From the NCBI GenBank assembly GCA_964443565.1, contig CAYUCT010000003.1, positions 1-59,565 of the forward strand: a DNA stretch of 59,565 nt, in the 5' to 3' direction. How positions within the stretch are numbered: the stretch's first letter is position 1; the number at the start of each line of letters is the position of its first letter. Position numbers and translations under genes: made by a program. Shown one piece after another: positions 511-42,349 of this stretch. Under the pieces are notes generated by a model. It did no database searches. It was not told the origin of the DNA and worked only from the letters and a program-made list of their open reading frames with translations. The DNA comes from Candidatus Woesearchaeota archaeon (GTDB lineage: Archaea > Nanobdellota > Nanobdellia > Pacearchaeales > UBA284).

Positions 511-1791
511 ATGAAGTATTCTGATTATGTTGATTTAAGTTATACTCCAAAAAAAACAGACATTATTTGTGATTTTTCTTTTAAACCTGCAAAAGGAGTT
601 TCATTAAAAGAAGTAGCAGGAGCAGTTGCAGCAGAATCTAGTATTGGAACTTGGACAGATGTTACAGAAGCACCATCTAGAATAAATGAATTAGCAGCAA
701 AAGTTTTTTTATTATCTAATGATCATCTTAAAATTGCATACCCCATTGAACTATTTGAAAAAAATAGTGTTCCGCAAATTCTTTCAAGTGTTGCAGGGAA
801 TATTTTTGGAATGAAAGCAGTAGATGCATTAAAATTACAGGATATTGAATTTCCAAAAGAGATTGTAAATAGTTTTCTTGGTCCAAAATTTGGAATTCAA
901 GGAATCAGAAAATTATTGAATGTTCCAAAAAGACCGTTAATTGGGACGATTATAAAACCAAAACTTGGATTAAATGAATCAGAACATGCAGAAATGGCAT
1001 TTAAATCTTGGGCTGGCGGATGTGATATTGTTAAAGACGATGAAAATTTAACTTCTCAACCATTTAATAAATTTTTAACTAGAATTAGAGAAACATTAAA
1101 ACAAAGAGATAGAGCAGAAAAATTAACTGGCGAAAAAAAAATTTACATGCCAAATATTACTTCTGAAACAGAAGAAATGATTCGGAGAGCAAAATTTGTT
1201 AAGAGTCTTGGAGGAGAATATGTTATGGTAGACATTCTTTCTTGTGGATGGAGTGCAATGGAAACATTAAGAAATCATAATGAAGATTTAAATTTGGTAA
1301 TTCACGCGCACCGAGCAGGATATGCCGCATTATCTAGAACAAAAGACCACGGGATAAGTATGTTGGTAATTGCAAAATTAGCAAGATTAATTGGGGTAGA
1401 CCAATTACATATTGGAACAGTTGTAGGAAAAATGGATACTCCAAAAAAAGAAGTAATTCATATTGATCAAGAAATGGAAGAACAATTTATAAAAAAAGGC
1501 AAGCATGTCTTAGAACAAAGTTGGTATAATATTAAACCTGTTTTTGCAGTTTCTTCAGGAGGACTTTATCCAGGGCATATTCCATATTTAGTTAGAACAT
1601 TAGGAAATAATATTGTCATTCAATGTGGTGGGGGTATTCATGGACATCCATTTGGAACAATTGCAGGAGCAAGAGCAGCAAGACAAGCATTAGAAGGAAC
1701 AATGAAAGGCATATCATTAAATACTTATGCAAAAAATCGGGTTGAACTTAATACGGCATTAACTTTTTTTAGCAAAAAAACAATTAGATAA
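511..1791 (+). CDS. rbcL: Ribulose-1,5-bisphosphate carboxylase large subunit, form III-like
   Basis: RuBisCO large-chain motifs: AAESSIGTWT, IIKPKLGL, GGCDIVKDDE, HAHRAG, HIGT. Length 426 aa. SD-like GAGGTGA lies upstream. Confidence 0.93.
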   Translation: MKYSDYVDLSYTPKKTDIICDFSFKPAKGVSLKEVAGAVAAESSIGTWTDVTEAPSRINELAAKVFLLSNDHLKIAYPIELFEKNSVPQILSSVAGNIFGMKAVDALKLQDIEFPKEIVNSFLGPKFGIQGIRKLLNVPKRPLIGTIIKPKLGLNESEHAEMAFKSWAGGCDIVKDDENLTSQPFNKFLTRIRETLKQRDRAEKLTGEKKIYMPNITSETEEMIRRAKFVKSLGGEYVMVDILSCGWSAMETLRNHNEDLNLVIHAHRAGYAALSRTKDHGISMLVIAKLARLIGVDQLHIGTVVGKMDTPKKEVIHIDQEMEEQFIKKGKHVLEQSWYNIKPVFAVSSGGLYPGHIPYLVRTLGNNIVIQCGGGIHGHPFGTIAGARAARQALEGTMKGISLNTYAKNRVELNTALTFFSKKTIR

Positions 1792-3338: not shown

Positions 3339-4247
3339 ATGTTTTTTATAGAAATGAAAAAAGGTTCAAAGATGACCGAAGAGCAGAGACAAAGATTAAG
3401 CGATGCTCATAAGGGAAAATCTGCTTGGTGGAATAAAGGAAGACATCATACTGAAGAAACTAAGAAGAAAATAAGTGAAGCCAATAAAGGGAAAGACCAT
3501 TGGACCGGGAGACATCATACACTAGAAACAAAAGAAAAACTTAAGAAAAGTCATCAAGGCCCTAAACCTTGGTTACAAGGAAAAAAATTATCTGAAGAGC
3601 ATAAGAAGAAGTTAAGCGAAATTAGAAAAAAATTATTTGAAGATGGGAAAATGACTGCTTGGAATAAGGGAAAGAAAATGAATAAACCCTCTTGGATGAA
3701 AGGAAAAAATCATACACCGGAAGCAAATGAAAAAAATAGGTTGGCTCATCTCGGAAAACCGGCCTGGAATAAAGATAAAAAAACAGGAATTATTCCCTGG
3801 AATAAAGGAAAAATTGGAACTCTACATCATACTGAAGAAGTAAAAGCAAGAATAAGAGAATTTAGATTAAAACAAATCTTTCCATTAAGGGATTCTACTC
3901 CAGAAATAAAGATTCAAAATTTTTTAAAACAATTAAATTTGAAATTTCTTGCTCACAGACCAATGAGGGAGATAGAAAATAGTTATCAATCAGATATATT
4001 TATTCCTTCGATAAATTTGGTAATAGAAATTGATGGAGATTATTGGCATGGAAATACTGATAATCCAAGATTTAAAATATTAAACCAAAAACAAATAAAT
4101 ACTAAAGAAAAAGATGCTATAAGAACAAAAGAATTGCAAGAAAGAGGATTTAAGGTTTTGAGACTTTGGGAAAGCGATATTAAAAAAATGGATGTTAATA
4201 ATTTTAAAGAGAGAATAAAAGAATTTAATAAAATTCTAATTAAATAA
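3339..4247 (+). CDS. NUMOD3-repeat protein with C-terminal Vsr/DUF559-like (PD-(D/E)xK) endonuclease domain; homing-endonuclease-like
   Basis: At least 5 tandem H(H)TxExKxKxSxxxKGK units (NUMOD3-like). C-terminus reads VIEIDGDYWHGN...RGFKVLRLWESDI. The start codon is ambiguous (3339, 3354 or 3372). Confidence 0.6.
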   Translation: MFFIEMKKGSKMTEEQRQRLSDAHKGKSAWWNKGRHHTEETKKKISEANKGKDHWTGRHHTLETKEKLKKSHQGPKPWLQGKKLSEEHKKKLSEIRKKLFEDGKMTAWNKGKKMNKPSWMKGKNHTPEANEKNRLAHLGKPAWNKDKKTGIIPWNKGKIGTLHHTEEVKARIREFRLKQIFPLRDSTPEIKIQNFLKQLNLKFLAHRPMREIENSYQSDIFIPSINLVIEIDGDYWHGNTDNPRFKILNQKQINTKEKDAIRTKELQERGFKVLRLWESDIKKMDVNNFKERIKEFNKILIK

Positions 4248-6140: not shown

Positions 6141-7463
6141 ATGGGAAAAGTAAGTCCACCATTTATTAAATATGTAATAAAAGCAAAATTTACAACTGTT
6201 GGAGTTGTTGAAAAACCCGATGTAATTGGAGCAATATTTGGGCAAACAGAAGGTCTTTTGGGGGAAGATTTAGAATTACGAGAATTGCAAAAAAAAGGAA
6301 AGATTGGAAGAATAGACGCAGAAATGGCAAATTCTGAAAATCAAACAACCGGAGTAGTTACCATTCCAACTTCAATAGACAAAGCAGAAACTACATTAAT
6401 TGCTGCGGCTGTTGAAACAATTGATAGAATAGGTCCCTGCGATGCAAAATTTGAGATAGACGAAATTGCAGATACAAGAGGAGGAAAAAGAGATTTTATT
6501 TTAGAAAGAGCAAAACAACTTATGGAAAAATTAAGTTCAGCAACTCCTGAAATTAAAGAGATGGAACAATCAGTAATTGATCATAATAGAACATCAAAAG
6601 TCAGAGAAATTGGAGATGAAAAAATTGCTGTAGGTCCGGATGTTGAAGTTAGTAATGAAATTATTATTGTTGAAGGAAGAGCAGATGTTGTAAATCTTTT
6701 AAAATGTGGAATTAAAAATGCAATTGCTATGAATGGAACAAAAGTTCCAAAGATCGTTTATGAAATGGCAAAAGAAAAAATTGCAACTTTATTTGTGGAT
6801 GGGGATAGAGGCGGAATTTTGATTGCAAAAAACGTTTTAGAGACATTAAATATCAAATATGTTGTAAAAGCACCAGACGGAAAAGAAGTTGAAGAACTTG
6901 TTGAAAAAGAAGCGGTTGCTTGTTTAAGAAATAAAATGACTGTTGAAGAGTTTAAGCAAAAATTCTTAGTAGTTGACGAAAATAAAAGATATGAAAAATC
7001 TTATGACAATAGGGAGAGAGGATATAACAATTATTCTGAAGAGAATAGATCAAGAGAAAATTCTTCAAGAGTTTCTTCAAATCTAAGAAATCGAGAAGAT
7101 TCTAGAAAATTTTCAGAATTAAGTGAAAATAAAGAGCCAAAAGAACCAAAAGAATTAGTGAAAATAACTGCTGCAGATCAAAAAGAAATTGAAAAACTTT
7201 TCAAAAGTGTAGAGAACACAAAATTAACTTTGTTAATTTCTAAAGAAGATAAGAAATTAATTGCAATAGATAAAGTTCAAACTACAAAGTTATCTAATGC
7301 AATTTATCAAATTAATCGAAGAGGAAAAAATGTAGATGTTTTAGCAATAGATGGAACAGTAACTCCAAGAATAATTGCTATGGCAGAACAAGCAGGAATT
7401 GCAGCAATTGCGGCAAAGAATTTTTCGGCTTCAAGTGAAAAAATAAAATTAATTTCAGTTTAA
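6141..7463 (+). CDS. dnaG: Archaeal DnaG-type primase (TOPRIM)
   Basis: N-terminus GVVEKPDVIGAIFGQTEGLLG...LRELQKKGKIGRI. TOPRIM motifs IIVEGRADV and FVDGDRGG. SD GGAGGT upstream. Confidence 0.9.
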   Translation: MGKVSPPFIKYVIKAKFTTVGVVEKPDVIGAIFGQTEGLLGEDLELRELQKKGKIGRIDAEMANSENQTTGVVTIPTSIDKAETTLIAAAVETIDRIGPCDAKFEIDEIADTRGGKRDFILERAKQLMEKLSSATPEIKEMEQSVIDHNRTSKVREIGDEKIAVGPDVEVSNEIIIVEGRADVVNLLKCGIKNAIAMNGTKVPKIVYEMAKEKIATLFVDGDRGGILIAKNVLETLNIKYVVKAPDGKEVEELVEKEAVACLRNKMTVEEFKQKFLVVDENKRYEKSYDNRERGYNNYSEENRSRENSSRVSSNLRNREDSRKFSELSENKEPKEPKELVKITAADQKEIEKLFKSVENTKLTLLISKEDKKLIAIDKVQTTKLSNAIYQINRRGKNVDVLAIDGTVTPRIIAMAEQAGIAAIAAKNFSASSEKIKLISV

Positions 7464-19934: not shown

Positions 19935-21092
19935 TTATCTCTTTAAATATTCATTAAGAAGTTTTTCTTTATATTGCTCTTTTTTTGTCTGATAAACATT
20001 CTTAAGATACTTTTTCATATTTATCATCGATTCTGCTTCTTTCTTAAATCTTTCTGAATAATATAGGATGTCATTAAAATAACTGGTGGTTACTGGAAGA
20101 TATTTTGGAAGTTCAGGAACATTTTCCAAATTTCTTTCATTATAAATCCAATTTCCTGCATGATAGTTCATTATAGTTAAATATAAATTTCCATCAAATT
20201 TGTTAAATGCATCAATATCTTTTTTTATTCCAATTTCTAAACCTCTTGTAGTAAATCTTTCATCAAATTTTTTTAAATTTTCTTCTAATTGTTCTTTGTT
20301 TTTAGAACGTTTTTTTATTTGACTAATGGAATCTTTTAATTCTTCAATATATCTTCCCATGTAGAAATTCATAGAATCTTTATTCTCTTTATATCCTTTT
20401 TGAAAATCTTTTATTTCCACAGAAAAATAATCCCAACCATCTAAATTTTTTGTATTATTAAATTGTTTTTTAAAATAGGTTACTGCTTTAGAATTCAATC
20501 TTTCAGATTCTTGCGAAAATTCTCTTCCTTTAAAATAATCTTTTGTTTTAAAAACTTTTAATCCATATCCTTCTGCAGTTTCGGGCATTAATTGTATCAT
20601 TCCTGCTGCACCAACATTTGAAATAGCATATCTACTAAATTCGCTTTCACAATAAATTTGTGCTAAAATTGTAAAAGGGGAAATCCTTAAATTTTCAGAG
20701 TTGGGTATAGACGGTTTATTATTTTTATATGGGTGGCTATATTTATTATAATTTTTTATTAATGTAGAAACAATTTTTTCTTTTATTTCTTTATCTATAC
20801 TATAAGACAAAAATCCTTCAATCATTGCTAATTCTTCGGCATACTCTTCTATTTCTTTTAATTTATTCCCATCAACAATTTCATTTAAAGAATTATTTTT
20901 TAAATAATTTTCTCTTTTGATTAATTCTTGTTCTAAATTCAAATAATCTTGATACCATCCAGAAACTTCTTCTTCTTTTATTTTCTTTAATGATTTATCT
21001 TCTAGAGCAAAGTTATTATCAAAATTACAACTAAAAGCACCAACTAAACTACCAAATAATAAAGATTTAATTAAAACGTTTTTTATTTTCAT
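19935..21092 (-). CDS. SLT-domain lytic transglycosylase-like protein (secreted)
   Basis: YCESEFS (catalytic E-S) and AAGMIQLMPETA are SLT motifs. An N-terminal signal or lipobox-like segment is present (SLVGAFSC). Confidence 0.75.
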   Translation of the reverse strand: MKIKNVLIKSLLFGSLVGAFSCNFDNNFALEDKSLKKIKEEEVSGWYQDYLNLEQELIKRENYLKNNSLNEIVDGNKLKEIEEYAEELAMIEGFLSYSIDKEIKEKIVSTLIKNYNKYSHPYKNNKPSIPNSENLRISPFTILAQIYCESEFSRYAISNVGAAGMIQLMPETAEGYGLKVFKTKDYFKGREFSQESERLNSKAVTYFKKQFNNTKNLDGWDYFSVEIKDFQKGYKENKDSMNFYMGRYIEELKDSISQIKKRSKNKEQLEENLKKFDERFTTRGLEIGIKKDIDAFNKFDGNLYLTIMNYHAGNWIYNERNLENVPELPKYLPVTTSYFNDILYYSERFKKEAESMINMKKYLKNVYQTKKEQYKEKLLNEYLKR

Positions 21093-31903: not shown

Positions 31904-33397
31904 TTATTCATTTCCTTTTTGTTTTTTTGAATATTCTTTTTCCCAATAAGGATCTTCAATTTCCTTAAGTTTTTCATCAAATTTGATTAATTCTTTATGG
32001 TAACCCTTATCTTTTAATGCCTTTTTAGCAGATTCATCTTCTGGAATAACATTGCATTTTTTTGCAATTTTGACAAATGTTTTATGATGATCCCGAATAA
32101 AACAAGGTCTTAATATATTTCCTAGTTTTCCATTCTGATTAAAATATTCTCCTTGCCATTGTCTTCCTTTAACAAAGAAATCAGAAAACAAAGCATCTGC
32201 TATTTTTTTTCCTTCAGAAAACAATTGGTTTACATTATGTTTGTAATATGGGACAAAAACACAGGGCATAATGTTGCCTTTCCAATCTATGTAAAAATAA
32301 CCTCCTGATCTTCCACATGATATACAACCGTCTGAGAGTATTGAGCTATTCCAAAAGTCTGCTACAAACCATTCTTTTTCACTAATCACTTGTTTCCATT
32401 TCTTAAACAATTCAAACCTTTGTTCAGGAGTAATCATTAATTTTGTTGTGAATTTTCTACCAATGGGCATATACTGGAACATCCACATATATGTAGCTCC
32501 TAATTTGTCAAAATAAAATTTATAAAATTCATCGGTTAACAAGATATTAACATTATTCTTTGTTGCGGTTACAGATGTTCCAAAAGGTACGCCAGCATTT
32601 CTTAGATTTTTCATTGCTTTTAATATTCGTTTATGAATCCCTTTTCCCCTTCGATCATCTGTTTCTTTTTCTAAACCTTCAATTGAAATAGCAGGAGTTA
32701 TGTTTCCAAGTTCTGCCATTTCCTTAGCAATTGATTCTGTGATTAATGTTCCATTTGTGTATATCAAAAAAAAACTATCTTTCCATTTTTTAGGTAAATC
32801 TAAAATTGTTTTTCCTTCACTATGATACATTAATGGCTCTCCACCAGAAATAACAAAAAATCTCATTCCCATTTCATCGTGCAATTCAGTCATTATTTTA
32901 TCAATTGTGCTCCAATTTAATGATTCAGCCGTCCTTGCTGTTGAAGAAGCATAACACCCTGTGCAATTTAAATTACACTTTTTAGTTGGACTAAGTGTAA
33001 TAAATGAAGGAGGGAATATACCATATTTTTTCTTAAATTTTAACATTACTTCTTCTTTATTATTCCCCCCAAACATAGCCGATTCAACTAAAGTCTCAAT
33101 AATTCTTTTTGTTGCTCTTTTAGAAATAAAACCTTTATCTAAATTTTTAAGAACAGAAAGATACATTGCTTTTACTCCATTAAATTTATCCAATCGTGCA
33201 TTTTTAGAAAATAATGGATCATTTGTTTTGACCATTCGTTTATAAAGAATTTTTTCAAATTGCTTAGCAGCAATATTTCTTGTTAATTTATTGCTTACAA
33301 TTGTTTTTGTTAAACTTGAAATTATTTTTTCTTTACTTAATTCCATTTTCATTTCTCTTTTTTTCATTTTATAAGTTCTTCCTCCTTCTAAGATCAT
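31904..33397 (-). CDS. Radical SAM enzyme with a C-terminal auxiliary-cluster (twitch/SPASM-like) region
   Basis: CNLNCTGC (Cx3Cx2C), VISGGEPL, and CISCGRSGGYFYIDWKGNIMPC (Gx4C). The start may be the internal Met at 33367. Confidence 0.8.
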   Translation of the reverse strand: MILEGGRTYKMKKREMKMELSKEKIISSLTKTIVSNKLTRNIAAKQFEKILYKRMVKTNDPLFSKNARLDKFNGVKAMYLSVLKNLDKGFISKRATKRIIETLVESAMFGGNNKEEVMLKFKKKYGIFPPSFITLSPTKKCNLNCTGCYASSTARTAESLNWSTIDKIMTELHDEMGMRFFVISGGEPLMYHSEGKTILDLPKKWKDSFFLIYTNGTLITESIAKEMAELGNITPAISIEGLEKETDDRRGKGIHKRILKAMKNLRNAGVPFGTSVTATKNNVNILLTDEFYKFYFDKLGATYMWMFQYMPIGRKFTTKLMITPEQRFELFKKWKQVISEKEWFVADFWNSSILSDGCISCGRSGGYFYIDWKGNIMPCVFVPYYKHNVNQLFSEGKKIADALFSDFFVKGRQWQGEYFNQNGKLGNILRPCFIRDHHKTFVKIAKKCNVIPEDESAKKALKDKGYHKELIKFDEKLKEIEDPYWEKEYSKKQKGNE

Positions 33398-33654
33398 TAA
33401 TAACTATTGCCTTTCCTTTTTTAACTTAAGTATTCCATTTTTATCTTTTAGTAAAAAGTAAAAATTCTTATTTAAATATTTTGGTTTTTTATTTCTTCTT
33501 ATCTTTCGGGTATTTACTTTTGCTTTTAGTGAGGGAGAAAAATTTCTTTTAATTGTAATCTTAGTAGAAATTTTTGATAATATCTAAAAGTTAGAGTTAA
33601 AACAAAAGAATAGGAAATAATATTTTTTTACCGCTCAATAGTAGAAATGCATTC

Positions 33655-33801
33655 TTACTTTTTTTTAGAAGTCTTTTTCTTTTTAGCTAATTTTTTAAGT
33701 TTTTCAACTTTACTTTGTTTGGTTCTTTTTCTAGGAGACCTGCCTTGATTTTTAACAGATTTCTTTTTCACTTTCTTTTTTGTTTGTTTTTTCTTCGCCA
33801 T
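33655..33801 (-). CDS. Lys-rich basic micro-protein (48 aa), hypothetical
   Basis: MAKKKQTKKK...KKKTSKKK. The longer ORF-track start (33852) runs into the G+C-rich island, so I chose the internal ATG. Confidence 0.35.
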   Translation of the reverse strand: MAKKKQTKKKVKKKSVKNQGRSPRKRTKQSKVEKLKKLAKKKKTSKKK

Positions 33802-33814
33802 TTTTATAATTATT

Positions 33815-34015
33815 AAAGGGCTCGGTGGGGAAGTGCCACAAACAAAGACCAATTCAATCTTAACCTATCAGTTTGTTTTAATGGTTATCTTCCTCGTGCT
33901 GTAAAGAAGCTTAAAGAGTACAGATTTCATATGGTGAGTTATAGCCCTTCCACCATATTAATAGCCGAATACTCAACAGAGGCTTAACAGTCACATCCTT
34001 TTCAAGGACAACCGA
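33815..34015. ncRNA. G+C-enriched structured island: candidate ncRNA or cis-regulatory leader, identity unknown
   Basis: Minus-strand reading gives GUCCUU-GAAA-AGGAU and AUAUGGUG-(14 nt)-CACCAUAU hairpins nested within GAGUA/UACUC and CUGU..AAGC/GCUU..ACAG helices. The loop AAGGGCU is complementary to AGCCCUU just upstream of the micro-ORF start. Confidence 0.3.
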
Positions 34016-34101
34016 TAATTATTAAAATATCTTCTTCTATTTAAATATATGTATTAACTTTATAATAGTTAAACTTAGAGTATGAAAGAGAAAAAGCAAG
34101 C

Positions 34102-34172
34102 GTCTCTCTAATATCTATCTCCCTTTAAAATATTATTTCATCTTTTTTTAAAAAAATAAGCAAAGAATAACG
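34102..34172 (+). promoter_or_regulatory. 71-bp conserved upstream element, copy 1
   Basis: Matches 36936-37006 at 70/71 nt. Contains the T7A7 palindrome TTTTTTTAAAAAAA. It ends 65 nt before ATG 34238, and a TATA-like TTTATAAAT lies at 34209-34217. Confidence 0.8.
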
Positions 34173-34237
34173 CACACCTAAATAATTATAAACTCAACCA
34201 CAACAAAGTTTATAAATATTAATTGTATTCCTTTTTT

Positions 34238-34468
34238 ATGGAATATAAAACTAAAATTGATTCAGAGAACTATAAACATATTATCCCTCTCTTTAGTGCT
34301 CTTGATTCGTCATATGAAGAAGGGAGCAGAGTGCATTCATCTTGTGAAAAACCTTGTGTTTGCGTATGTGTTTGTAGACATGGAAAGGCTTCTTCAATGG
34401 ATTTTTCAAAAAAGAAAGATCTTGAAAAAAATATAGAAGAACTCTTTGAAAAAGTTCTGGCAGCATAA
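34238..34468 (+). CDS. Cys-rich small ORF, candidate precursor peptide A
   Basis: MEYKTK...SYEEGSRVHSSCEKPCVCVCVCRHG.... I chose ATG 34238 because its spacing to the upstream element matches module 2. Confidence 0.4.
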   Translation: MEYKTKIDSENYKHIIPLFSALDSSYEEGSRVHSSCEKPCVCVCVCRHGKASSMDFSKKKDLEKNIEELFEKVLAA

Positions 34469-34499
34469 AGTTTTTATAAGACATAGAATTCTTTTCATA

Positions 34500-35549
34500 A
34501 TGGAAAAGGTTATTATAGATGATTTAATGAGGGTTTTAAATAAAAAATTGAATAGACTCATTCCTTTTAACAAAAGATTTGATGTTTTTCTACAAAAAGG
34601 AGGGGTTGGATGTTATGATATTAAAAGATGGGCAGTATTTGTTCCAGATTCTTTTGATAATTATATGAAAATTCATACAATTTTACATGAAGGAGCACAT
34701 TTAATCCTAAGAGAGAAAATATCAAACTTAATCTCGTCAAAAAAATTTGATAGACTCAAATGGTCTATGGAACCTTTTTTTATAGAAAATTCTATTTTTT
34801 CTTTAGACGAAGCTTTTGCAGAAATGGTTACAACCATAATAATGTCAGAACTTCCAGAAGATTTTTTTAAAAAGGGCATTGTTTTTGATAAATTTTCTGA
34901 ACCTTCTTATAAAGATTCTAATAAGAAATTAGATGTTTTCTTAGCAAAAATTTCAGAATGGAAAATCCCAATAACTCTTAAAAATAATAATCTTAACATA
35001 TCAAATACGCTTAATAATTTAACTTTTTTAGGACCTGAAAAAAGAATTCAAACAATTATTGATTCTTTATCTATTTTAAATGATTATAATTATGAAGGAT
35101 TTATAAAAAAAATAATGGAGGATCCCTTAAAAAATTCTCCGAGTATGAAATTATTATTAAATACCCTCCCTTTTAAAGTTAAGATAAATAAAGAAATCAA
35201 AAATTTTGACAAACAAATTTTTTTAGATTATTTAGAAACTCTTTCATGGGGGGATTATAATGAAAATTATTATGCCTATTCCGAATTTATTGATAAAAAA
35301 AATTTAAACAAAATAAAAAAACAAAAAATTCCAAAAATAAACACCAAAATTAAAGAAAGATTTTTGCAAATTTCAAAAAATTTAGGGGAGATTAGAGAGA
35401 AAATAATGTGTGCATGGGAAGCGAAGGATGAAAATAAATTAAAAAAATTAATTGAAAATTACAATTCAGAAAGGTGGAAATATAGGAAAAAAATAGACTT
35501 AAAAAATAATTTTAATGAATATGGTTTTGGAACATTCAAATGGGAATAA
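34500..35549 (+). CDS. HExxH protein, putative metallopeptidase
   Basis: ILHEGAHLILRE followed by LDEAFAEM. I chose the start at 34500 to avoid overlap with the small ORF. Confidence 0.5.
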   Translation: MEKVIIDDLMRVLNKKLNRLIPFNKRFDVFLQKGGVGCYDIKRWAVFVPDSFDNYMKIHTILHEGAHLILREKISNLISSKKFDRLKWSMEPFFIENSIFSLDEAFAEMVTTIIMSELPEDFFKKGIVFDKFSEPSYKDSNKKLDVFLAKISEWKIPITLKNNNLNISNTLNNLTFLGPEKRIQTIIDSLSILNDYNYEGFIKKIMEDPLKNSPSMKLLLNTLPFKVKINKEIKNFDKQIFLDYLETLSWGDYNENYYAYSEFIDKKNLNKIKKQKIPKINTKIKERFLQISKNLGEIREKIMCAWEAKDENKLKKLIENYNSERWKYRKKIDLKNNFNEYGFGTFKWE

Positions 35550-36667
35550 AAGAAAAATATAATCTTAAACAGATTAATGAAAAGTTTTTAATAGACAAAG
35601 CCTCGATGAAAACAAGAATAGAAAAAGTTTCTTGTTTGAAAATTTCTGCACCTCTATATGCTCAATATGAAATCATAGAAAATTGCAATCAAAGATGCAT
35701 TTTTTGTTATAATGTTTGGAAAAATAGAAAGAAAAATTCCTGTAAAAAAAGAGAGTTAACATTAAAACAACAATTAAAAATTATAGACAAGTTAGCAAGA
35801 ATGAAAATTTTTGGATTGATTCTCTCTGGAGGAGAGCCCCTTATCTCAAAAAATTTATTTAAAATAATTGAAAGGGCGTCAAAAAAATATGGAATTGAAG
35901 TAAGTATTATTACAAATGGAACATTATTGACAGAAGAAGTATGCAAGAGATTGAAAGAAAACGGATTATCTGATATGCAAATATCCCTTCATAGTTTTAA
36001 AGAAAGAGATAATAACAAAATTACCGGGATGAAAAATTCTTTTGGTAGAACTGTTTCTGGGATAAGAAATGCTCTTAAATATTTTTCTCCAGAAAATATA
36101 AATATCAATATGGTTCCAACAAAAAAAACATATAACCAAGTGTATGATACAGCCAAGTTTTTAAAAAATTTGGGAGTTATCAATTTTACAGTTAGTTCTT
36201 ATGTTTATACAGGAAATAAAAAGTTAGATAAAGAATTAGCACCGACTAAAAAACAATTTTTAGAGATATATAATCAAATAGTTAAAGTGAAAAAAGAACT
36301 TTTTATGAGAACATTTATTGGGGGTTGTTATCCTCTATGTTCTCTAAAAAAGAAAATAGATGATGAAGTTATTTCTTTAATTGGAAATATCTGTGATGCA
36401 GGAGTTACTCAAATAGTCATTAGCCCAAAAGGGGATTTAAGACCTTGTGTTGCTTATGAGCATATTTTAGGGAATATACTAGAAGATGATCCTTTAAAAA
36501 TATGGAAAAATTCAAAAATTCTTAAAAAAATAAGAAGAATGGAAAATATTCCTTTAATGTGTGAAAGATGTAAACATTTAGTAATTTGTCGAGGAGGTTG
36601 TAGAGCATCGGCATATAATAAATCTAAGCGACTTGACGATATTCATCAATTAATAGAAAATGACTGA
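35540..36667 (+). CDS. Radical SAM / SPASM-domain maturase-like enzyme
   Basis: CNQRCIFC, LSGGEPL, KGDLRPC (Gx4C), CERCKHLVICRGGC (Cx2Cx5Cx3C). Confidence 0.85.
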   Translation: MGIKEKYNLKQINEKFLIDKASMKTRIEKVSCLKISAPLYAQYEIIENCNQRCIFCYNVWKNRKKNSCKKRELTLKQQLKIIDKLARMKIFGLILSGGEPLISKNLFKIIERASKKYGIEVSIITNGTLLTEEVCKRLKENGLSDMQISLHSFKERDNNKITGMKNSFGRTVSGIRNALKYFSPENININMVPTKKTYNQVYDTAKFLKNLGVINFTVSSYVYTGNKKLDKELAPTKKQFLEIYNQIVKVKKELFMRTFIGGCYPLCSLKKKIDDEVISLIGNICDAGVTQIVISPKGDLRPCVAYEHILGNILEDDPLKIWKNSKILKKIRRMENIPLMCERCKHLVICRGGCRASAYNKSKRLDDIHQLIEND

Positions 36668-36929
36668 ATATATTTTATTTAAGCATCCCGATTTAAAAAT
36701 TAGAAAAGAAAAATTTGGAGGAATAATAAAAACTGTAAGAGGATTATTTTTAATAGACAAAAAAGCATATTGTTTGTTAAAGAAGATTGACAATAAAAAA
36801 ACATATTCGGAATTAACTGAAGAGAATGAATCAAAGAAAGTAATTGAAGATTTATTAAAACTTAAAATAATTTTAAAAATCGAAGTAGGGAGAGCTGAAA
36901 GAGTAAAAAATCTCAAAGATAAAAATTAA
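36660..36929 (+). CDS. PqqD-like small protein (putative RiPP recognition element)
   Basis: 89 aa. KFGGIIKTVRGLFLIDKKAYCLLKKIDNKKTYSEL resembles the PqqD family pattern. It overlaps the rSAM stop by 8 nt. Confidence 0.55.
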   Translation: MTEYILFKHPDLKIRKEKFGGIIKTVRGLFLIDKKAYCLLKKIDNKKTYSELTEENESKKVIEDLLKLKIILKIEVGRAERVKNLKDKN

Positions 36930-36935
36930 GTGTGT

Positions 36936-37006
36936 GTCTCTCTAATATCTATCTCCCTTAAAAATATTATTTCATCTTTTTTTAAAAAAATAAGCAAAGA
37001 ATAACG
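36936..37006 (+). promoter_or_regulatory. 71-bp conserved upstream element, copy 2
   Basis: Matches 34102-34172 at 70/71 nt. It ends 64 nt before ATG 37071. Confidence 0.8.
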
Positions 37007-37070
37007 ATTATGCATTAACTAAAAAGTTACAATTCAAAAACCTTAAATAGTTTTATATCTTTTAAAAATT

Positions 37071-37544
37071 ATGAAAGAAAATGACTCTAAACCAATTTAT
37101 AGGGAATTAAAATCTCCAGTTACAGCTCAAATGGCTTTGACTTACGGATGCAATAATTTATGTAGGTATTGTTATAATTCTACAAGGGGATTAGAAAATC
37201 AAGATACGGGAATGTCCATAGAAAATTCCATGAAAATAGCAAAACAGATTGTTGATAGTGAAATTTTTGAAGTTGTTCTAACAGGAGGGGAGCCATTGTT
37301 GAGAAGAGATTTATTATATCCTTTAGCAAAATATTTTTCCCAAAAAAAGACCGATGTTAAAATGGAAACCTTAGAAAAAAAGGCAGAAGATGTAGGAAAA
37401 GCATCTCTTAGAGATATCCGAGCTATGTCTATCAAGATACCTGCATACAATGCAAAAAGCGAAGAAAGCAGATTCAGTATTTATGACATGGCAGAGTATT
37501 CTTGTGATGCTGCATGCGACAATTGTCATTGTGCAACTTACTAA
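37071..37544 (+). CDS. Radical-SAM N-terminal fragment fused in frame to a Cys-rich peptide (candidate precursor B)
   Basis: CNNLCRYC and VVLTGGEPLL, then the homology stops near the A7 run at 37342-37348. An internal Met at 37362 begins a 60-aa peptide ending EYSCDAACDNCHCATY. Confidence 0.5.
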   Translation: MKENDSKPIYRELKSPVTAQMALTYGCNNLCRYCYNSTRGLENQDTGMSIENSMKIAKQIVDSEIFEVVLTGGEPLLRRDLLYPLAKYFSQKKTDVKMETLEKKAEDVGKASLRDIRAMSIKIPAYNAKSEESRFSIYDMAEYSCDAACDNCHCATY

Positions 37545-37550
37545 TTCAAA

Positions 37551-38210
37551 ATGCCAATACACTATGGAAATATGCTTACTTTGAAGTATAAAGATTTAAT
37601 TAGTGATAAGTTTAATTCTCTAATAAAATTTTTTGATTTTGAACCAGGAGATGTTTTTATAGAGATTTTGCCATTGGAAATGTTTGAAAGATTTTCCGAA
37701 TTGGAAAGAGGTAAAAAACCAGAATTTTTTGTTGTTGGTTCTGCTCTAAATAATGGAAGAGTTATCATCTTAGATAAAAAAGATTTTGAAAAAAAAGAGC
37801 ATAAAGCAGAAGAATTTGAAAGAGTAATTCTGCATGAATTGGCACATATGTTTATAAGAAGAATTCTTTGGCCAAAACAAACATTTCCCTGGATTGAGGA
37901 AGGAATTTGCGAGTATTTATCTTTTGGAGATTATCCATTAAAAGTAAAAAAATTTGTGAATTTTAAAAATTTAGAAAAAAAAGAGGACTGGAACAAACAC
38001 TATGCTTATCAACAGTCAAGGGAATTTTTTAAATTTTTAATTAAAAAATTTGGAAATAAAAAAATTGCAGATTTTATTAAAAAAATAAAAGAAAAATCAG
38101 AAGAAGAAAGTTTTAAAGAGGTGTTTGGAAAAGAACTAAATGAATTAGAAGAAGAATTCAAATCCTCTTTAAAAAATGAAAAAATTATGCCATCCAGGAA
38201 CGCCTTGTAA
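37551..38210 (+). CDS. Peptidase-MA-like HExxH protein
   Basis: ILHELAHMFIRR ... WIEEGICEYL (HExxH plus a downstream Glu; Peptidase_MA_2-like). Confidence 0.6.
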   Translation: MPIHYGNMLTLKYKDLISDKFNSLIKFFDFEPGDVFIEILPLEMFERFSELERGKKPEFFVVGSALNNGRVIILDKKDFEKKEHKAEEFERVILHELAHMFIRRILWPKQTFPWIEEGICEYLSFGDYPLKVKKFVNFKNLEKKEDWNKHYAYQQSREFFKFLIKKFGNKKIADFIKKIKEKSEEESFKEVFGKELNELEEEFKSSLKNEKIMPSRNAL

Positions 38211-39306
38211 AATCAATAATTATAGAGATTTAGATATTTCTATATTAAAAGAAGAATACAAGGAATTAGTTAATTGTTCAGATGGTTGGGCAATTTTTGG
38301 AAGAGATTCATTTTGGATAAGTAATGAAGAATTTTCAAAGATAAATTTATCAGATAATTTTAAAATATTCAAAGTTGATAGTTTTAGATTAAATGGTTGG
38401 GGGTTTTATTCTCCGATAAGTTTAGAAATTGAATTAACAAAAAAATGTAATCAAAAATGTATTCATTGCTGGAATGAGTCAGGAAATGGGTCAGTAATTA
38501 GATTGGAAAAACTCGAAGAAATTGTTGATGAATTTAGAGAGAAAGGTGGGCAGAATTTAAAATTGACTGGAGGAGAACCCTTTCTGCATCCTTCTTTTTT
38601 TAATTTTGTAGAATATTCAAAAGAAAAAGGAGTTAGGAATATTGAAATCACAACAAATGGAAGTTTAATTAACGAGGACAATGTTAAATTTTTATCAAAA
38701 TATATTAATCAATTAAATATAAGCTTGCATGGTGCAACTGAAGAAACCCATAATAAAATTACAAGAAGCCAAAATTATCAAATAGTAAGGAAAGCTATTT
38801 CATTATGTAATGATTATGGATTAAGTCCTATAATAAATTTTACAATTATGGGAAAGAACAAATCTGAAATAGAAGCAATGTTTAAATTATTCCAAAATTC
38901 AAAAAATAGGATAAGATTTAATTTACTTATGCAAAGAGGTTCTGGAGAAAAATTGGAAGACATTTCTGCAGAAATTTTTAAATTAAGAAAAGAAATAAGA
39001 TATTTTGGTTCATTGTATTCGGTAGAATTAGAAAAAAGTGGGTTGTATCCTCAAGGATATAATAAAGAAGTAGAAAGTTCTAAATTTTATGGTTGTAGTG
39101 CATTAAGAACGGGAATGTATCTTTCTTCAGAAGGATTAGTTTTTCCTTGTAATTTAGCAACCAATCCTATAGGAAATATCTATGAGAATTCTATTTCTGA
39201 CATCTGGAGAAGTGAAAATGCTAAAAAAATTAGAGAAATTATTTTATGTGAGAAATATTCTTGTGGTGTTTCTTGTGGTGGAAGATGTAAAGCAAAAGAA
39301 ATATAA
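38176..39306 (+). CDS. Radical SAM / SPASM-like enzyme with an ~85-aa N-terminal extension
   Basis: CNQKCIHC, LTGGEPF, EGLVFPC (Gx4C), CEKYSCGVSCGGRC. Confidence 0.85.
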   Translation: MKKLCHPGTPCKINNYRDLDISILKEEYKELVNCSDGWAIFGRDSFWISNEEFSKINLSDNFKIFKVDSFRLNGWGFYSPISLEIELTKKCNQKCIHCWNESGNGSVIRLEKLEEIVDEFREKGGQNLKLTGGEPFLHPSFFNFVEYSKEKGVRNIEITTNGSLINEDNVKFLSKYINQLNISLHGATEETHNKITRSQNYQIVRKAISLCNDYGLSPIINFTIMGKNKSEIEAMFKLFQNSKNRIRFNLLMQRGSGEKLEDISAEIFKLRKEIRYFGSLYSVELEKSGLYPQGYNKEVESSKFYGCSALRTGMYLSSEGLVFPCNLATNPIGNIYENSISDIWRSENAKKIREIILCEKYSCGVSCGGRCKAKEI

Positions 39307-39501: not shown

Positions 39502-39900
39502 TTAATTAATTAAAAATTCTGGAGATTTTTGAATCATTTTGTTATATTGTTCATCTGGAACAGTTCTATCAATATAATACTGTGAATCAATTCTTGCTTT
39601 TAATGAATGTTCAAGAAATATTAATTCTGTTTCGTCAAAATATTCAGTTAAAAATCTTTTTGCAAATTCAATGGTACAAGAATGAACTTCACATTTTATC
39701 CCTATTTTCATTAATAAAGCATAAAGTGAAAAATAAATAGTATAATAGGCTGTTGAAATTTTCCAATCTTTGATATTATTCACCCTCATAGATTCAAGAG
39801 CATCTTCTGCTTTTTTGATGTAGGCATTGGCTAAATTTGGATTGGAATTAATTAATTTTAATCCTTCTTTTTTTTCAATACACCATTTAATTTTATCCAT
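39502..39900 (-). CDS. HEPN-domain protein (partner of the adjacent nucleotidyltransferase)
   Basis: All-helical, about 130 aa, with ARIDSQYY near the C-terminus. With the internal start MDKIKW it overlaps the upstream MNT gene by 8 nt. Confidence 0.55.
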   Translation of the reverse strand: MDKIKWCIEKKEGLKLINSNPNLANAYIKKAEDALESMRVNNIKDWKISTAYYTIYFSLYALLMKIGIKCEVHSCTIEFAKRFLTEYFDETELIFLEHSLKARIDSQYYIDRTVPDEQYNKMIQKSPEFLIN

Positions 39901-40483
39901 CTTTAAAAATTGTTTGTATAAATTTTTCCGCATTACAAAAGATTATATGGTCTTTTAGAATTTCTTTTAAAAAAATGTCTTTATTAATATTTTTCTCAAA
40001 ATTTTTTATAGGATAACATTTAATGTTTATTTCTATATTCCAATTTTTTGAGATTTTTTCTATCTCTTTTTGATTATAACTCCCCGCAATAAAAATATCT
40101 AAATCTGAATTTTCTCTTTCTAATCCCTTAACATAGCTCCCAAATATAACCCCTATTCCATTAATCTGGGGGGATATTTTTTCTATAATCTCTTTAATCA
40201 AAAGTTTTTTTTCTAAAAAGGTTAATGTTTTATATTGTTCTGCAAAAATAAGATATCTTTTAGTAAACTCGCTTGGATTTAGTTTAAATGTTCTAATTTT
40301 TCCTCTAATCTTTGATTCTATAACCCCCTTATCTTCTAAATTTTCAAGAATAAGTTGTGCGGTTCTTGGACTTATCTTTAATAATCTTTGAACTTCTCGA
40401 ATATAGTATTCTCTATTAAAATCATAAGTGAATAGGGATAAAACCTGTAATGTATTTTCAGTTATGTTAATTTTTTTATACAT
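39893..40483 (-). CDS. wHTH plus minimal nucleotidyltransferase (MNT) domain protein
   Basis: GSYVKG...NSDLDIF (GS...DxD) follows an N-terminal winged-helix-like segment. Confidence 0.65.
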   Translation of the reverse strand: MYKKINITENTLQVLSLFTYDFNREYYIREVQRLLKISPRTAQLILENLEDKGVIESKIRGKIRTFKLNPSEFTKRYLIFAEQYKTLTFLEKKLLIKEIIEKISPQINGIGVIFGSYVKGLERENSDLDIFIAGSYNQKEIEKISKNWNIEINIKCYPIKNFEKNINKDIFLKEILKDHIIFCNAEKFIQTIFKDG

Positions 40484-41449: not shown

Positions 41450-42349
41450 ATGTATAGAAAGCGAAGGGGAAACTATTTTGAATCTCAATCAGGAGATGAT
41501 GTAGGTATTTTAAATAATTATTTATACCAAATAAAGAAATATCCAGTATTAAGTGAAAAAGATCAAAGAGAAAATTTTAAATTATTAAAACAAGGAAATT
41601 TAAAAATAAAAGAGAAAATTTTTAATTCTAATTTAAGATTGGTTATAAGTGTTGCAAAAAATTATTTTGCTAAATATCCTGCCTCTCGAATGGATATAAT
41701 TCAAGAAGGAAATTTAGGTTTAATGCGTTCTATAGAATCTTTTGATTTATCTAAAAAAACAAGGTTTTCAACATATGCATATTTTTGGATTGAACAAAGA
41801 ATAAGAAAATATTTGGAGACCGATGGAACTTTAATTGCCTTGCCCCATAATTTGAATTTTGAAATAAAAAAATTTGAAAAGGAAAAACAAAATTTTTTTA
41901 AATTTACTGGGAGAGACGATTCTTTAGAACATCTTGCAAATACATTCAATGAAAAAGAAGAAACCATTAGGAAAACACTTGAAAAAAGAGTAGAAATATT
42001 TTCTTTAGATGCCCCCATCAATGAATTTGAAGAGGATTCTTCTTTAATGATAGATCATTTAGAATATGGGGAATTAGATTCTCCGGAAAAAAAGGTTTAT
42101 AAAGAAAAAATTAAAAAATTAATGCTTAAAAAAATTTCTTCTCTTCCCCGCAAATCTCAAGAAATTGTGTTATTACGATTTGGTCTTAAAGATGGATATG
42201 AAAGAACATTAAAAGAAGTAGGTGAAATTTTTGATTTAACCAGGGAAAGAGTGAGACAAATAATAGATAAGAGTTTAGAATTAATAAAAGAAGATAAAAA
42301 TTTTATTGATGAATTAAAGAACTTATGTAATAAACAAGAATTGAAATAA
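41450..42349 (+). CDS. Sigma-70 family RNA polymerase sigma factor (bacterial type)
   Basis: Region 2: DIIQEGNLGLMRSIESFD...FSTYAYFWIEQRIRKYL. Region 4.2: TLKEVGEIFDLTRERVRQIIDKSL. Confidence 0.85.
   Translation: MYRKRRGNYFESQSGDDVGILNNYLYQIKKYPVLSEKDQRENFKLLKQGNLKIKEKIFNSNLRLVISVAKNYFAKYPASRMDIIQEGNLGLMRSIESFDLSKKTRFSTYAYFWIEQRIRKYLETDGTLIALPHNLNFEIKKFEKEKQNFFKFTGRDDSLEHLANTFNEKEETIRKTLEKRVEIFSLDAPINEFEEDSSLMIDHLEYGELDSPEKKVYKEKIKKLMLKKISSLPRKSQEIVLLRFGLKDGYERTLKEVGEIFDLTRERVRQIIDKSLELIKEDKNFIDELKNLCNKQELK

Follow-up and report, generated by a model that had tools for sequence, protein, structure and literature searches.

Two adjacent operons of a probable, unnamed radical SAM peptide-modification family in a DPANN archaeon, one of them damaged by a deletion

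The DNA analysed here, a stretch of 59,565 nt (contig CAYUCT010000003.1, positions 1 to 59,565 of the forward strand; hereafter the window) from the assembly GCA_964443565.1 of a Candidatus Woesearchaeota archaeon, carries between positions 34102 and 39306 two adjacent gene sets, modules 1 and 2. Each encodes a small Cys-rich peptide, a protein with an HExxH motif and at least one radical S-adenosylmethionine (rSAM) enzyme with a SPASM domain. An earlier reading of the letters alone (the sequence-only reading) had proposed a cluster for a peptide that is made by ribosomes and modified after translation (RiPP). We consider it probable that the two operons come from one loosely related, unnamed family of rSAM peptide-modification (RiPP-type) cassettes, that module 2 has been damaged by a deletion and that the host is a DPANN archaeon. 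The genes and gene remnants are as follows.

34238–34468, forward strand: module 1 precursor, 76 residues, with putative leader (HIIPLFSALDS), Cys-ladder core (SSCEKPCVCVCVCRHGKASSMDF) and putative follower (...LFEKVLAA)
34500–35549, forward strand: orphan HExxH protein, 349 residues, with an HEGAH motif; presumed gluzincin-type leader/follower peptidase
35540–36667, forward strand: rSAM1, rSAM/SPASM enzyme, 375 residues (PF04055, 2.3e-29; PF13186, 3.2e-9)
36660–36929, forward strand: MftB/PqqD-like protein, 89 residues, a putative discrete RiPP recognition element (RRE) on the strength of a sub-threshold MftB match and its operon position
37071–37361, forward strand: remnant of rSAM-A (residues 1–97), the N-terminal part of a 157-residue fusion open reading frame (ORF); 78% identical to rSAM-A of the relative L014
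37354–37364, forward strand: deletion junction, a single copy of ATGTTAAAATG, located by comparison of direct repeats with relatives
37362–37544, forward strand: module 2 precursor, 60 residues (METLEKKA...DMAEYSCDAACDNCHCATY), with the core at the extreme C-terminus; recognised by homology to free-standing genes
37551–38210, forward strand: MA-clan (gluzincin) peptidase, 219 residues (PF04450, 36.7 bits, cut-off 23.8; PF13485, 35.5 bits, cut-off 32.4)
38176–39306, forward strand: rSAM-B, 376 residues, rSAM/SPASM enzyme with a β-rich N-terminal domain of about 85 residues (PF04055, 9.6e-27; PF13186, 2.8e-9)

The sequence-only reading had delineated nine same-strand elements with short gaps or overlapping junctions, and all nine are found at its coordinates. 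Overlaps between ORFs amount to 10 nt at 35540/35549, 8 nt at 36660/36667 and 35 nt at 38176/38210, the remaining junctions in both modules being gaps of 6–65 nt.

The module 1 precursor gene is called at the equivalent position in L001–L008 (L-numbers denote the compared loci or contigs of relatives). Its family comprises 17 protein clusters, none of them named. In the 15 that were aligned, the residues C-E-x-x-C-V-C-x-C-V-C-x-H-G are invariant, with the Pro ahead of the second Cys almost as constant; the core block is [STP]-C-E-[KR]-P-C-V-C-[VIR]-C-V-C-[RK]-H-G-[KG]. Conserved as well are the leader motif H-I-x-P-L-F-S-A-L-D-S, a D/E-F pair and the C-terminal L-F...[AL]-A-A. Between genomes the 14-codon core shows 2–6 synonymous against 0–2 nonsynonymous codon changes, and the ladder is written in mixed codons (TGT/TGC for Cys, GTT/GTA/GTC for Val). 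Because the codons vary synonymously while the peptide stays fixed, the module 1 core is, by its codon pattern, selected coding sequence and not a simple-sequence artefact. The sequence-only reading had named a finding that could undo its proposal at this point, namely that the small ORFs might lack conservation in relatives, so that CVCVCVC would be no more than a TGT/GTT artefact. This fails, since a neighbourhood check finds the ORFs conserved beside the same enzymes in many relatives; the artefact is largely ruled out by the mixed, synonymously varying codons together with conservation across 17 clusters.

Neither the module 1 nor the module 2 precursor matches any Pfam or NCBIfam family, in agreement with the earlier statement that the core motif could be assigned to no named class. 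The motif said to be shared by the two small ORFs, EE(G)SR...SCx3Cx(1-2)CxC, survives in part: the S-C-x3-C...C-x-C ladder is conserved, whereas EE(G)SR lies in a variable stretch of both families. The only residues invariant in all three precursor sub-families are cysteines.

The enzyme beside this precursor, rSAM1, has the motifs CNQRCIFC, CX12GX4C and CX2CX5CX3C which, with its PF04055 and PF13186 matches, bear out its assignment as an rSAM-SPASM protein; the SPASM matches of both rSAM1 and rSAM-B exceed the 21.5-bit cut-off. An exact look-up of the rSAM1 sequence returned no record, its close homologues are 72–82% identical and about 94 related clusters are found with E <= 1e-55. Among PDB sequences its top matches are the peptide maturases SuiB (1.5e-12), SkfB, PqqE (1.6e-8) and CteB.

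The 349-residue protein encoded between precursor and rSAM1 is more isolated. An exhaustive HMMER search among 1.84 billion proteins found only two representative clusters, and no match was obtained in Pfam, in NCBIfam or, by profile search, among PDB sequences, leaving no link to a named peptidase family. Having no Pfam match, it falls outside the Peptidase_MA_2/BSP definition of the MA clan, and its alignment with the MA-type peptidase of module 2 is limited to the HExxH metal-binding helix. The residues H63-E64-x-A66-H67, E91 and D103-E104 are invariant down to a homologue at 37% identity, and we presume from this motif that the protein is a leader/follower peptidase.

The 89-residue protein is a candidate, and in our view a likely one, for the RRE, that is, the leader-binding partner. 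The sequence-only reading had called it PqqD-like, a call that is weak. Its gene lies directly 3' of the rSAM gene in all relatives, with FK..R.E.FGGI invariant; the sole family it matches is NCBIfam MftB (TIGR03967; E 0.0048, 17.2 bits against a cut-off of 33), which is matched by three of seven members of the 89-residue family; and a single-sequence AlphaFold2 model (mean predicted local distance difference test score, pLDDT, 72) has the β-β-β-α-α-α order expected of an RRE. On the other side, Pfam scans of 15 family members and of the rSAM-A tails described below gave no match to PqqD (PF05402), profile searches against PDB sequences were empty and a fold search with the model returned nothing convincing.

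Module 1 is, as judged from gene order, an intact and conserved four-gene cassette in Woesearchaeota and Nanoarchaeia metagenome-assembled genomes (MAGs). Every contig that is long enough shows the same order and overlaps, with an ORF of 75–86 residues, an HExxH protein of 347–349, an rSAM enzyme of 372–376 and a protein of 89–93. The order recurs in at least four genomic contexts (L001–4, L005, L006–8 and L020) and its flanks differ: tRNA-Cys and prolyl-tRNA synthetase genes in L001, RtcB and archease in L005, and an HTH/DUF2178 pair with NAD synthase in L006. The cassette thus appears to be portable.

Beyond these relatives lies a sister clade of rSAM1, proteins of about 368 residues at 43–48% identity that make up the bulk of the roughly 94 matches. 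Three of its loci were looked up. All are on archaeal contigs, two of them adjoining genes for ribosomal S27e/S24e, Spt4 and Rpb7, and the order is a precursor of 69–74 residues, a Peptidase_MA_2 protein of about 220 residues, the rSAM enzyme and a protein of 86–89 residues. The precursor cores resemble ACK[SK]CQC[NH]CRLCIGG and the C-terminus ...LLAA is again present. Further afield, a Bacteroidales MAG encodes an rSAM enzyme (48% identity), an 81-residue protein and a precursor that has the CERPCVCVCVCKHG core as well, without a peptidase; its core, SCERPCVCVCVCKHGG, is nearly identical to that of module 1 in the window. Of the 185,579 species representatives in GTDB, four were confirmed to encode the CVC[VI]CVC[RK]H precursor, three of them Woesearchaeota and the fourth from Bacteroidales; a fifth match, in Streptomyces, was set aside as probably spurious, with just 14 residues covered. 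We also observed in Labilibaculum sp. A4 (WTCR01000004.1; L012, 4775–6325) a 60-residue FCKCQAC peptide with an rSAM enzyme at 44% identity and a 74-residue partner; this trio sits among KAP NTPase, TIR, SLATT and TIR genes, a neighbourhood with the look of a defence island.

In module 2 the sequence-only reading had taken the ORF at 37071–37544 for a plain precursor. It is instead a remnant of rSAM-A fused to a precursor, which occupies only the last 60 residues, so that the 157-residue ORF should not be taken for a precursor as a whole. In relatives the native order is rSAM-A (431–437 residues), a precursor of 59–69 residues, an MA peptidase of 218–226 residues and rSAM-B. This is seen in L014–L017, L024, L026, L030 and L031, and L027 and L028 show its rSAM-A–precursor part up to their contig ends. 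About 100 residues at the N-terminus of the fusion ORF are a truncated radical SAM domain with CNNLCRYC and GGEPLL (PF04055, 1.2e-11, covering profile positions 3–84 of 166), the remnant matching residues 1–100 of the 437-residue L014 rSAM-A. Residues 98–157 are 62% (L015), 51% (L014) and 39% (L017) identical to free-standing precursors of 61–64 residues. The switch falls exactly at ...TDVKM|ETLEKK and, at the DNA level, the window tracks rSAM-A up to the ATG and the precursor gene from that same ATG onward.

Relatives carry ATGTTAAAATG, or a one-base variant, twice and about 1 kb apart, at rSAM-A codons ~94–98 and where the rSAM-A stop meets the precursor start. Comparison of these sequences indicates that a deletion of about 1 kb between 11-nt direct repeats is what fused rSAM-A residues 1–97 in frame to the precursor; rSAM-A residues ~98–432 were removed, the RRE-like tail included. 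The event is private to the lineage of the window, since in L023, the closest relative, with a precursor at 85% identity, the rSAM-A C-terminus is still intact upstream of the precursor. It is also recent: between the remnant and L030, which are still 92% identical, 18 codons have changed synonymously and 8 nonsynonymously (ratio 0.44). The locus illustrates neatly how an operon decays in nature through slippage between direct repeats of 11 nt.

We give scarcely any credence to the idea that the two most unusual features are artefacts, CVCVCVC of a TGT/GTT simple repeat and the fusion of an assembly collapse. The window, at 25–28% G+C, is rich in low-complexity DNA and the contig is of metagenome origin, but the ladder has the codon pattern given above in an ORF that is called and conserved throughout its clusters, and the fusion junction shares only 11 nt, so that a collapse is unlikely. 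Metagenome assemblers normally use k-mers longer than this.

What the deletion took away can be judged from the intact relatives. rSAM-A is nearer to the rSAM1 clade (128–155 bits) than rSAM-B is (87 bits), and its last ~80 residues align co-linearly, if weakly (hhalign P 0.004), with the 89-residue family, the common pattern being K-Y-R-K-E, two hydrophobic strands and then helices. For these two reasons rSAM-A has the appearance of an rSAM1-type enzyme that carries its partner domain as a fusion. Module 2 in this genome is probably crippled, because the enzyme corresponding to rSAM1 and its peptide-binding-like tail have been lost.

The module 2 precursor is found at nine further metagenomic loci; D[ML].EY[SA]CDA..(C)..CHCAT[YF]-stop is invariant, and native precursors end ...EYSCDAACDNCHCAT[YF]. 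The downstream peptidase, described earlier as Peptidase_MA-like, is indeed an MA-clan member, exceeding the Pfam gathering scores of both BSP (PF04450) and Peptidase_MA_2 (PF13485). Its H95-E96-xx-H99...W114..E117-G118 is invariant and it is 72% identical to its L014 orthologue. Pfam likewise supports the description of rSAM-B as an rSAM-SPASM-like enzyme with an extra N-terminal ~85 residues. It contains CNQKCIHC and a variant SPASM motif, CX4CX3CX3C, and has 22 close homologues of about 376 residues, all covering the N-terminal extension. An AlphaFold2 model from a 23-sequence alignment (pLDDT 84) has as its best PDB fold match SkfB (6efn; E 1e-18, template modelling score 0.68), followed by SuiB, BlsE, CteB, viperin and anaerobic sulfatase-maturating enzyme (anSME). 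In it, the extension forms a short helix and three or four strands, not a textbook RRE.

Two other copies of module 2 show damage of their own: in L025 (15–2002) rSAM-A and the peptidase are each split into two ORFs, and in L030 (5001–5168) a stop and a frameshift lie in the N-terminal part of the precursor. Either genuine decay or sequencing errors at low coverage could account for this.

Could module 2 nevertheless still function, its precursor being made from the internal ATG at 37362 or processed from the fusion, and rSAM1 and the 89-residue protein standing in for rSAM-A? We regard this as decidedly unlikely. In its favour, the precursor, peptidase and rSAM-B frames are full length and undamaged, the fusion keeps the reading frame, the two operons have a 71-nt upstream element in common (see below) and, of the module 2 enzymes, rSAM-A comes nearest to rSAM1. 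The identity of those two is nonetheless just ~28–31%, the two leaders are unrelated in sequence, and L025 and L030 look decayed as well; since the deletion looks recent, moreover, the intact downstream frames say little about selection.

The description of the modules as duplicated or parallel needs qualification. Two adjacent gene sets do exist, but the HExxH proteins align over the HExxH helix only and the native architectures differ. Since their rSAM enzymes are 27% identical, modules 1 and 2 are, by sequence comparison, distant paralogues and not the outcome of a recent duplication. The wider family takes three architectures: precursor, 349-residue HExxH protein, rSAM and RRE-like protein; precursor, MA peptidase, rSAM and RRE-like protein; and rSAM-A with fused RRE-like tail, precursor, MA peptidase and rSAM-B.

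Upstream of each operon lies a copy of a 71-nt repeat, followed by a putative TATA-like box.

34102–34172, forward strand: 71-nt repeat, copy 1, non-coding; ends ~36 nt upstream of the module 1 TATA-like box
34209–34218, forward strand: putative TATA-like box of module 1, TTTATAAATA; ends 20 nt before the precursor ATG
36936–37006, forward strand: 71-nt repeat, copy 2, starting 6 nt after the stop of the 89-residue protein gene; ends ~35 nt upstream of the module 2 TATA-like box
37042–37049, forward strand: putative TATA-like box of module 2, CTTAAATA; ends 21 nt before the ATG at 37071

The two copies of this element, noted already in the sequence-only reading, are identical at 70 of 71 positions and bracket module 1 exactly. 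Within the window, the first 24 nt of the repeat are confined to these two places, with no match in 100 shuffles. As non-coding DNA the repeat is genome-specific, being found neither upstream of the cassettes of relatives nor in JGI metagenome contigs. It is predicted to form no stable RNA fold (z -0.6); a scan of 33380–34260 against Rfam gave one sub-threshold CRISPR-DR match (E 0.83) and a whole-window scan at gathering scores only a tRNA. A structured RNA or known RNA family was therefore dropped as an explanation, there being neither fold, meaningful Rfam match nor copy in relatives.

The promoter regions beyond the repeat are better conserved. Window positions 37014–37068 are 89% identical to the native promoter region of L014 (136–190), where the 71-nt repeat is not present, and the native promoter regions of relatives are conserved right up to the edge of the repeat in the window. 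At the position equivalent to the module 1 TATA-like box L001 has AAAATTTATAAAG, and a AAAGTTAC...TTAAATA block is common to the upstream regions of the window, L014, L015 and L017. Because the TATA-like boxes end 20–21 nt before the first ATG, their placing suggests that the transcripts of both operons are leaderless; from such a start in module 2, translation of the whole fusion ORF is predicted. A scan for bacterial promoters and terminators was uninformative for an archaeon.

Repeats of another kind accompany the cassette elsewhere. That of L006 is bracketed by a different, perfect 25-nt direct repeat (3712–3736 and 6860–6884) and just ahead of the one in L001 there is a tRNA-Cys gene that has partial 5' and 3' duplicates (6418–6632). 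Taken with the 71-nt repeat, these hint that the four-gene cassette moves by recombination. The 71-nt repeat itself would be either a recently copied upstream regulatory or terminator element shared by the operons, or a recombination scar of cassette insertion. Neither precursor was found in IMG/VR when viral or mobile carriage was considered.

That both gene sets have the make-up of rSAM-dependent RiPP pathways, as proposed earlier, is largely supported by their precursors, rSAM cores and SPASM domains. The sequence-only reading had also asked whether the rSAM proteins might fall robustly in a known family outside RiPP biosynthesis. They do not: none of rSAM1, rSAM-B, the intact L014 rSAM-A and rSAM0 (an upstream rSAM protein at 31904–33397) reaches any curated NCBIfam cut-off. 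The highest matches of rSAM1 are NirJ2 (TIGR04055, 145.6 bits against 500), AhbD (TIGR04545, 137.9 against 500) and MftC (TIGR03962, 127.4 against 265). Across the enzymes tested, PqqE gives 110 bits against 381 and MoaA 110 against 325. Peptide maturase models fare no better, with StsB at 92–96 bits against 625, AlbA at 70–77 against 850, PapB at 77 against 340 and SkfB at 63 against 300. The anSME model (TIGR03942) is not in the best 25 families for rSAM1 or rSAM-B and scores 49.9 bits against 349 with rSAM0. Viperin (NF038283) gives 83.7 and 67.7 bits against a cut-off of 180. A defence-system reading was set aside, PADLOC having returned only generic pVip similarity that covers the rSAM core alone.

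It follows that the name 'AdoMet-dependent heme synthase', which homologues bear in public databases, is unsupported by sequence, because no rSAM tested reaches a curated cut-off. We accordingly think it highly improbable that these are cofactor-biosynthesis enzymes (heme synthases of AhbD/NirJ type, MoaA or anSME) beside which the small ORFs are irrelevant. In its favour are those public names, the NirJ2/AhbD and MoaA models as the top NCBIfam matches of rSAM1 and rSAM-B respectively, and the presence of anSME among the fold matches of rSAM-B. All scores, however, are 3–7 fold under the curated cut-offs, no cassette contains heme, molybdenum cofactor or sulfatase genes, and synteny with Cys-ladder peptides is strict across domains. 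For anSME in particular, the ORFs of the window include no sulfatase gene near the cluster and the fold match is of middle rank.

If the RiPP-type reading is right, the 89-residue protein would bind the leader and present the core to rSAM1. By means of a 5'-deoxyadenosyl radical and the SPASM auxiliary clusters, rSAM1 might then join ladder cysteines to carbons of a neighbouring conserved segment, giving thioether cross-links of the sactipeptide or ranthipeptide type. Such cross-linking is our best guess, made by analogy. The product would probably be a cross-braced β-hairpin around the invariant R/K-H-G turn: the alternating cysteines, the invariant [RK]-H-G and the alternate conserved residues S52, M/L54 and F56 could fit a hairpin laced across its strands by thioethers, although this is speculation. 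The HExxH protein would trim the leader, the follower or both. In intact copies of module 2, two rSAM chemistries would act on a C-terminal core that always ends CAT[YF].

Other chemistry by the same enzymes, namely epimerisation of Val, C–C cross-links or C-terminal oxidative decarboxylation, seems to us rather unlikely. The strict C-V-C-V-C-V-C alternation would suit regular D/L patterning, and Val/Ile are the residues on which YydG, PoyD and similar rSAM epimerases act. Two different rSAM enzymes in intact module 2 imply two chemistries, and SuiB, the top PDB sequence match of rSAM1, is a C–C cross-linker. Against this, the invariant residues of the three precursor sub-families are cysteines and nothing else, sacti- and ranthipeptides are typified by Cys-rich cores together with SPASM maturases, and rSAM-B has both SkfB and CteB in the leading group of its structural matches.

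Several observations weigh against the RiPP-type reading, or against parts of it. The two precursor families align with their Cys ladders in register (hhalign P 0.007), a weak homology; the HExxH...E motif is the sole hint of peptidase activity in the 349-residue protein; and the 89-residue protein, with its sub-threshold MftB matches and fruitless PDB sequence and fold searches, counts here too. The view of module 2 as crippled has to contend with the internal ATG at 37362, through which it might still work if that start is used and rSAM-B alone suffices. Finally, no transporter or immunity gene was found in any cassette examined, and the most conserved part of the precursors is the core and not the leader, which is more typical of cofactor-like or housekeeping peptides (those of pyrroloquinoline quinone (PQQ), mycofactocin and the 'six cysteines in forty-five residues' peptides, SCIFF) than of antimicrobial RiPPs.

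The lack of export and immunity genes and the extreme conservation of the core leave room for a cofactor-like or signal-like role. A product made by the same enzymology that serves as an intracellular peptide-derived cofactor, a metal/redox carrier or a signal, in place of a secreted antimicrobial, is on balance unlikely but a credible alternative. The cassette equals the minimal PQQ/mycofactocin core of precursor, discrete PqqD-family partner, SPASM rSAM and peptidase; MftC and MftB are among the best NCBIfam matches; the module 1 core is near-invariant across archaea and the Bacteroidales MAG; and the module 2 core always ends in an aromatic residue (CAT[YF]-stop), loosely reminiscent of the C-terminal Tyr of MftA. 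The scores of MftC, MftB and PqqE are, however, far below cut-off, neither partner dehydrogenases nor additional tailoring genes are conserved in the vicinity, and both the rarity of the cassette (four real species representatives among the GTDB set) and its varying genomic position argue against a core cofactor.

A more adventurous version, a long shot in our estimation, would make the Cys-ladder peptide a cross-domain metal/redox cofactor or signal, not a weapon, shared by Woesearchaeota and bacteria such as Bacteroidales. It is prompted by the occurrence of the same 14-residue core and the same rSAM/RRE pair in both domains; the murein-lytic and sigma-70 genes of these archaea (below) suggest life on bacterial hosts. 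Were this true, the cassette would be a portable module for dealings between symbiont and host, its mobility marked by the 71-nt repeat and the 25-nt repeat of L006.

An archaeal host of DPANN type, as first suggested, is confirmed by the window, which codes for aEF1A, GatD, an ATP-dependent DNA ligase, CDC48 and RuBisCO, and by the nearest homologues of the cluster genes, which belong to MAGs of Woesearchaeota, Nanoarchaeia and Nanoarchaeota. A bacterial origin in the candidate phyla radiation, prompted by a sigma-70 gene, was dropped given this gene content and the Woesearchaeota homologues. The sigma-70 family gene itself (41450–42349, forward strand) is full length, with Sigma70_r2 and r4 domains and ~180 bits to RpoD/RpoS models, on a contig that is otherwise archaeal; such genes are prevalent in Woesearchaeota, their function being unknown (PMC8204110). 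A protein with an SLT lytic-transglycosylase domain is encoded at 19935–21092 (reverse strand) and the RuBisCO large subunit at 511–1791 (forward strand). Lytic transglycosylases of the murein-like kind and RuBisCO resembling Form III have been described in Woesearchaeota and Pacearchaeota, and are discussed as typical of those small-genome lineages, possibly episymbionts of bacteria (PMC8204110).

Other features of the neighbourhood deserve brief mention. rSAM0 (31904–33397, reverse strand; 497 residues) has an N-terminal extension of ~130 residues and only a partial SPASM match, and is divergent from module 1; its top PDB sequence match is SkfB (2.9e-10). It was set aside as a cluster member, being unrelated in sequence to the module enzymes (25–63 bits), on the opposite strand and not found in the cassettes of relatives. 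Between rSAM0 and module 1, an ORF-free patch at 33800–34000 has 36–38% G+C against ~22% in the adjacent intergenic DNA; it has no Rfam match and a mild fold signal on the forward strand (z -1.6), and might represent a small RNA not yet annotated. Immediately after module 2, at 39502–40483 (reverse strand), overlapping genes for a HEPN protein and a winged helix-turn-helix nucleotidyltransferase (Polbeta/NTP_transf_2; PADLOC PDC-M05A, 2.6e-17) resemble a toxin–antitoxin pair. L001 has a similar nucleotidyltransferase gene upstream of its module 1 cassette, and the 148-residue ORF overlapping it there has no Pfam match. Lastly, a NUMOD3/DUF559 endonuclease-like ORF (3339–4247, forward strand), directly 3' of the aEF1A gene, may be a free-standing homing endonuclease.

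How, then, does the family relate to known systems? Its grammar of precursor, RRE-like protein, SPASM rSAM and peptidase is already established. Both types of core are invariant to an unusual degree, the first reading C-x3-C-V-C-V-C-V-C-[RK]-H-G and the second ...CDAxCDxCHCAT[YF], and we know of no named class with the ladder spacing C-x3-C-x-C-x-C-x-C. To our knowledge, no RiPP from a DPANN archaeon has been characterised. Nothing corresponding to the precursor families, the leader–core–follower layout with its central ladder, the orphan HExxH partner or the two-rSAM variant with its C-terminally fused partner domain was found in Pfam, NCBIfam, PADLOC or the literature searched, and the literature search found no description of this cassette family. 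Should the peptides prove cross-linked as proposed, they would provide a new scaffold and new enzymes for rSAM peptide chemistry and show where minimal-genome symbionts invest biosynthetic capacity.

The closest parallels are with sactipeptide and ranthipeptide pathways (SkfB, AlbA, CteB and PapB; SCIFF), which likewise combine a SPASM/twitch rSAM with a small Cys-rich precursor, may attach a peptide-binding domain to the maturase, as the N-terminal domain of rSAM-B recalls, and have a leader peptidase in the cluster; the rSAM-B model matches SkfB best and has CteB in its top ten. They differ in that no maturase model is reached and the window precursors match no NCBIfam model, SCIFF included, in that module 1 places its core in the middle, ahead of a conserved follower, and has a separate, MftB-like partner protein, and in their hosts, here DPANN archaea. 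Mycofactocin (MftA/MftB/MftC/MftE) offers another likeness, with its short precursor, discrete PqqD-family chaperone, SPASM rSAM and peptidase. MftB is the sole family matched by the 89-residue protein, MftC is in the top three NCBIfam matches of rSAM1, and the module 2 core has a C-terminal Tyr or Phe. The MftC and MftB scores are nonetheless below cut-off, and the precursors end ...VLAA and ...CATY in place of ...GVY. The peptidase here is an HExxH zincin, whereas MftE is a creatininase-family enzyme, and there are no MftD/MftF homologues or associated dehydrogenases. Streptide (SuiB-type) and PqqE-type SPASM enzymes are the best PDB sequence matches of rSAM1 and have the same rSAM and SPASM architecture, but their substrates lack Cys ladders, their chemistry forms C–C bonds and the PqqE model is not reached here.

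Within the archaea, bulk genome mining has reported predicted rSAM RiPP clusters across DPANN, none of the archaeal clusters with a characterised product in the part of that report available (PMC12144867). The earlier remark that such pathways are essentially uncharacterised in DPANN is thus fair as to products, and needs the addition that bulk mining had already predicted rSAM RiPP clusters there. As far as the available part of the paper extends, the present family is not delineated there, nor are its precursors or the architectures with one and two rSAM enzymes (PMC12144867). Where archaeal rSAM RiPP clusters have so far been known as bulk predictions, going by that part of the report, the two operons described here and their relatives now define a concrete, testable family.

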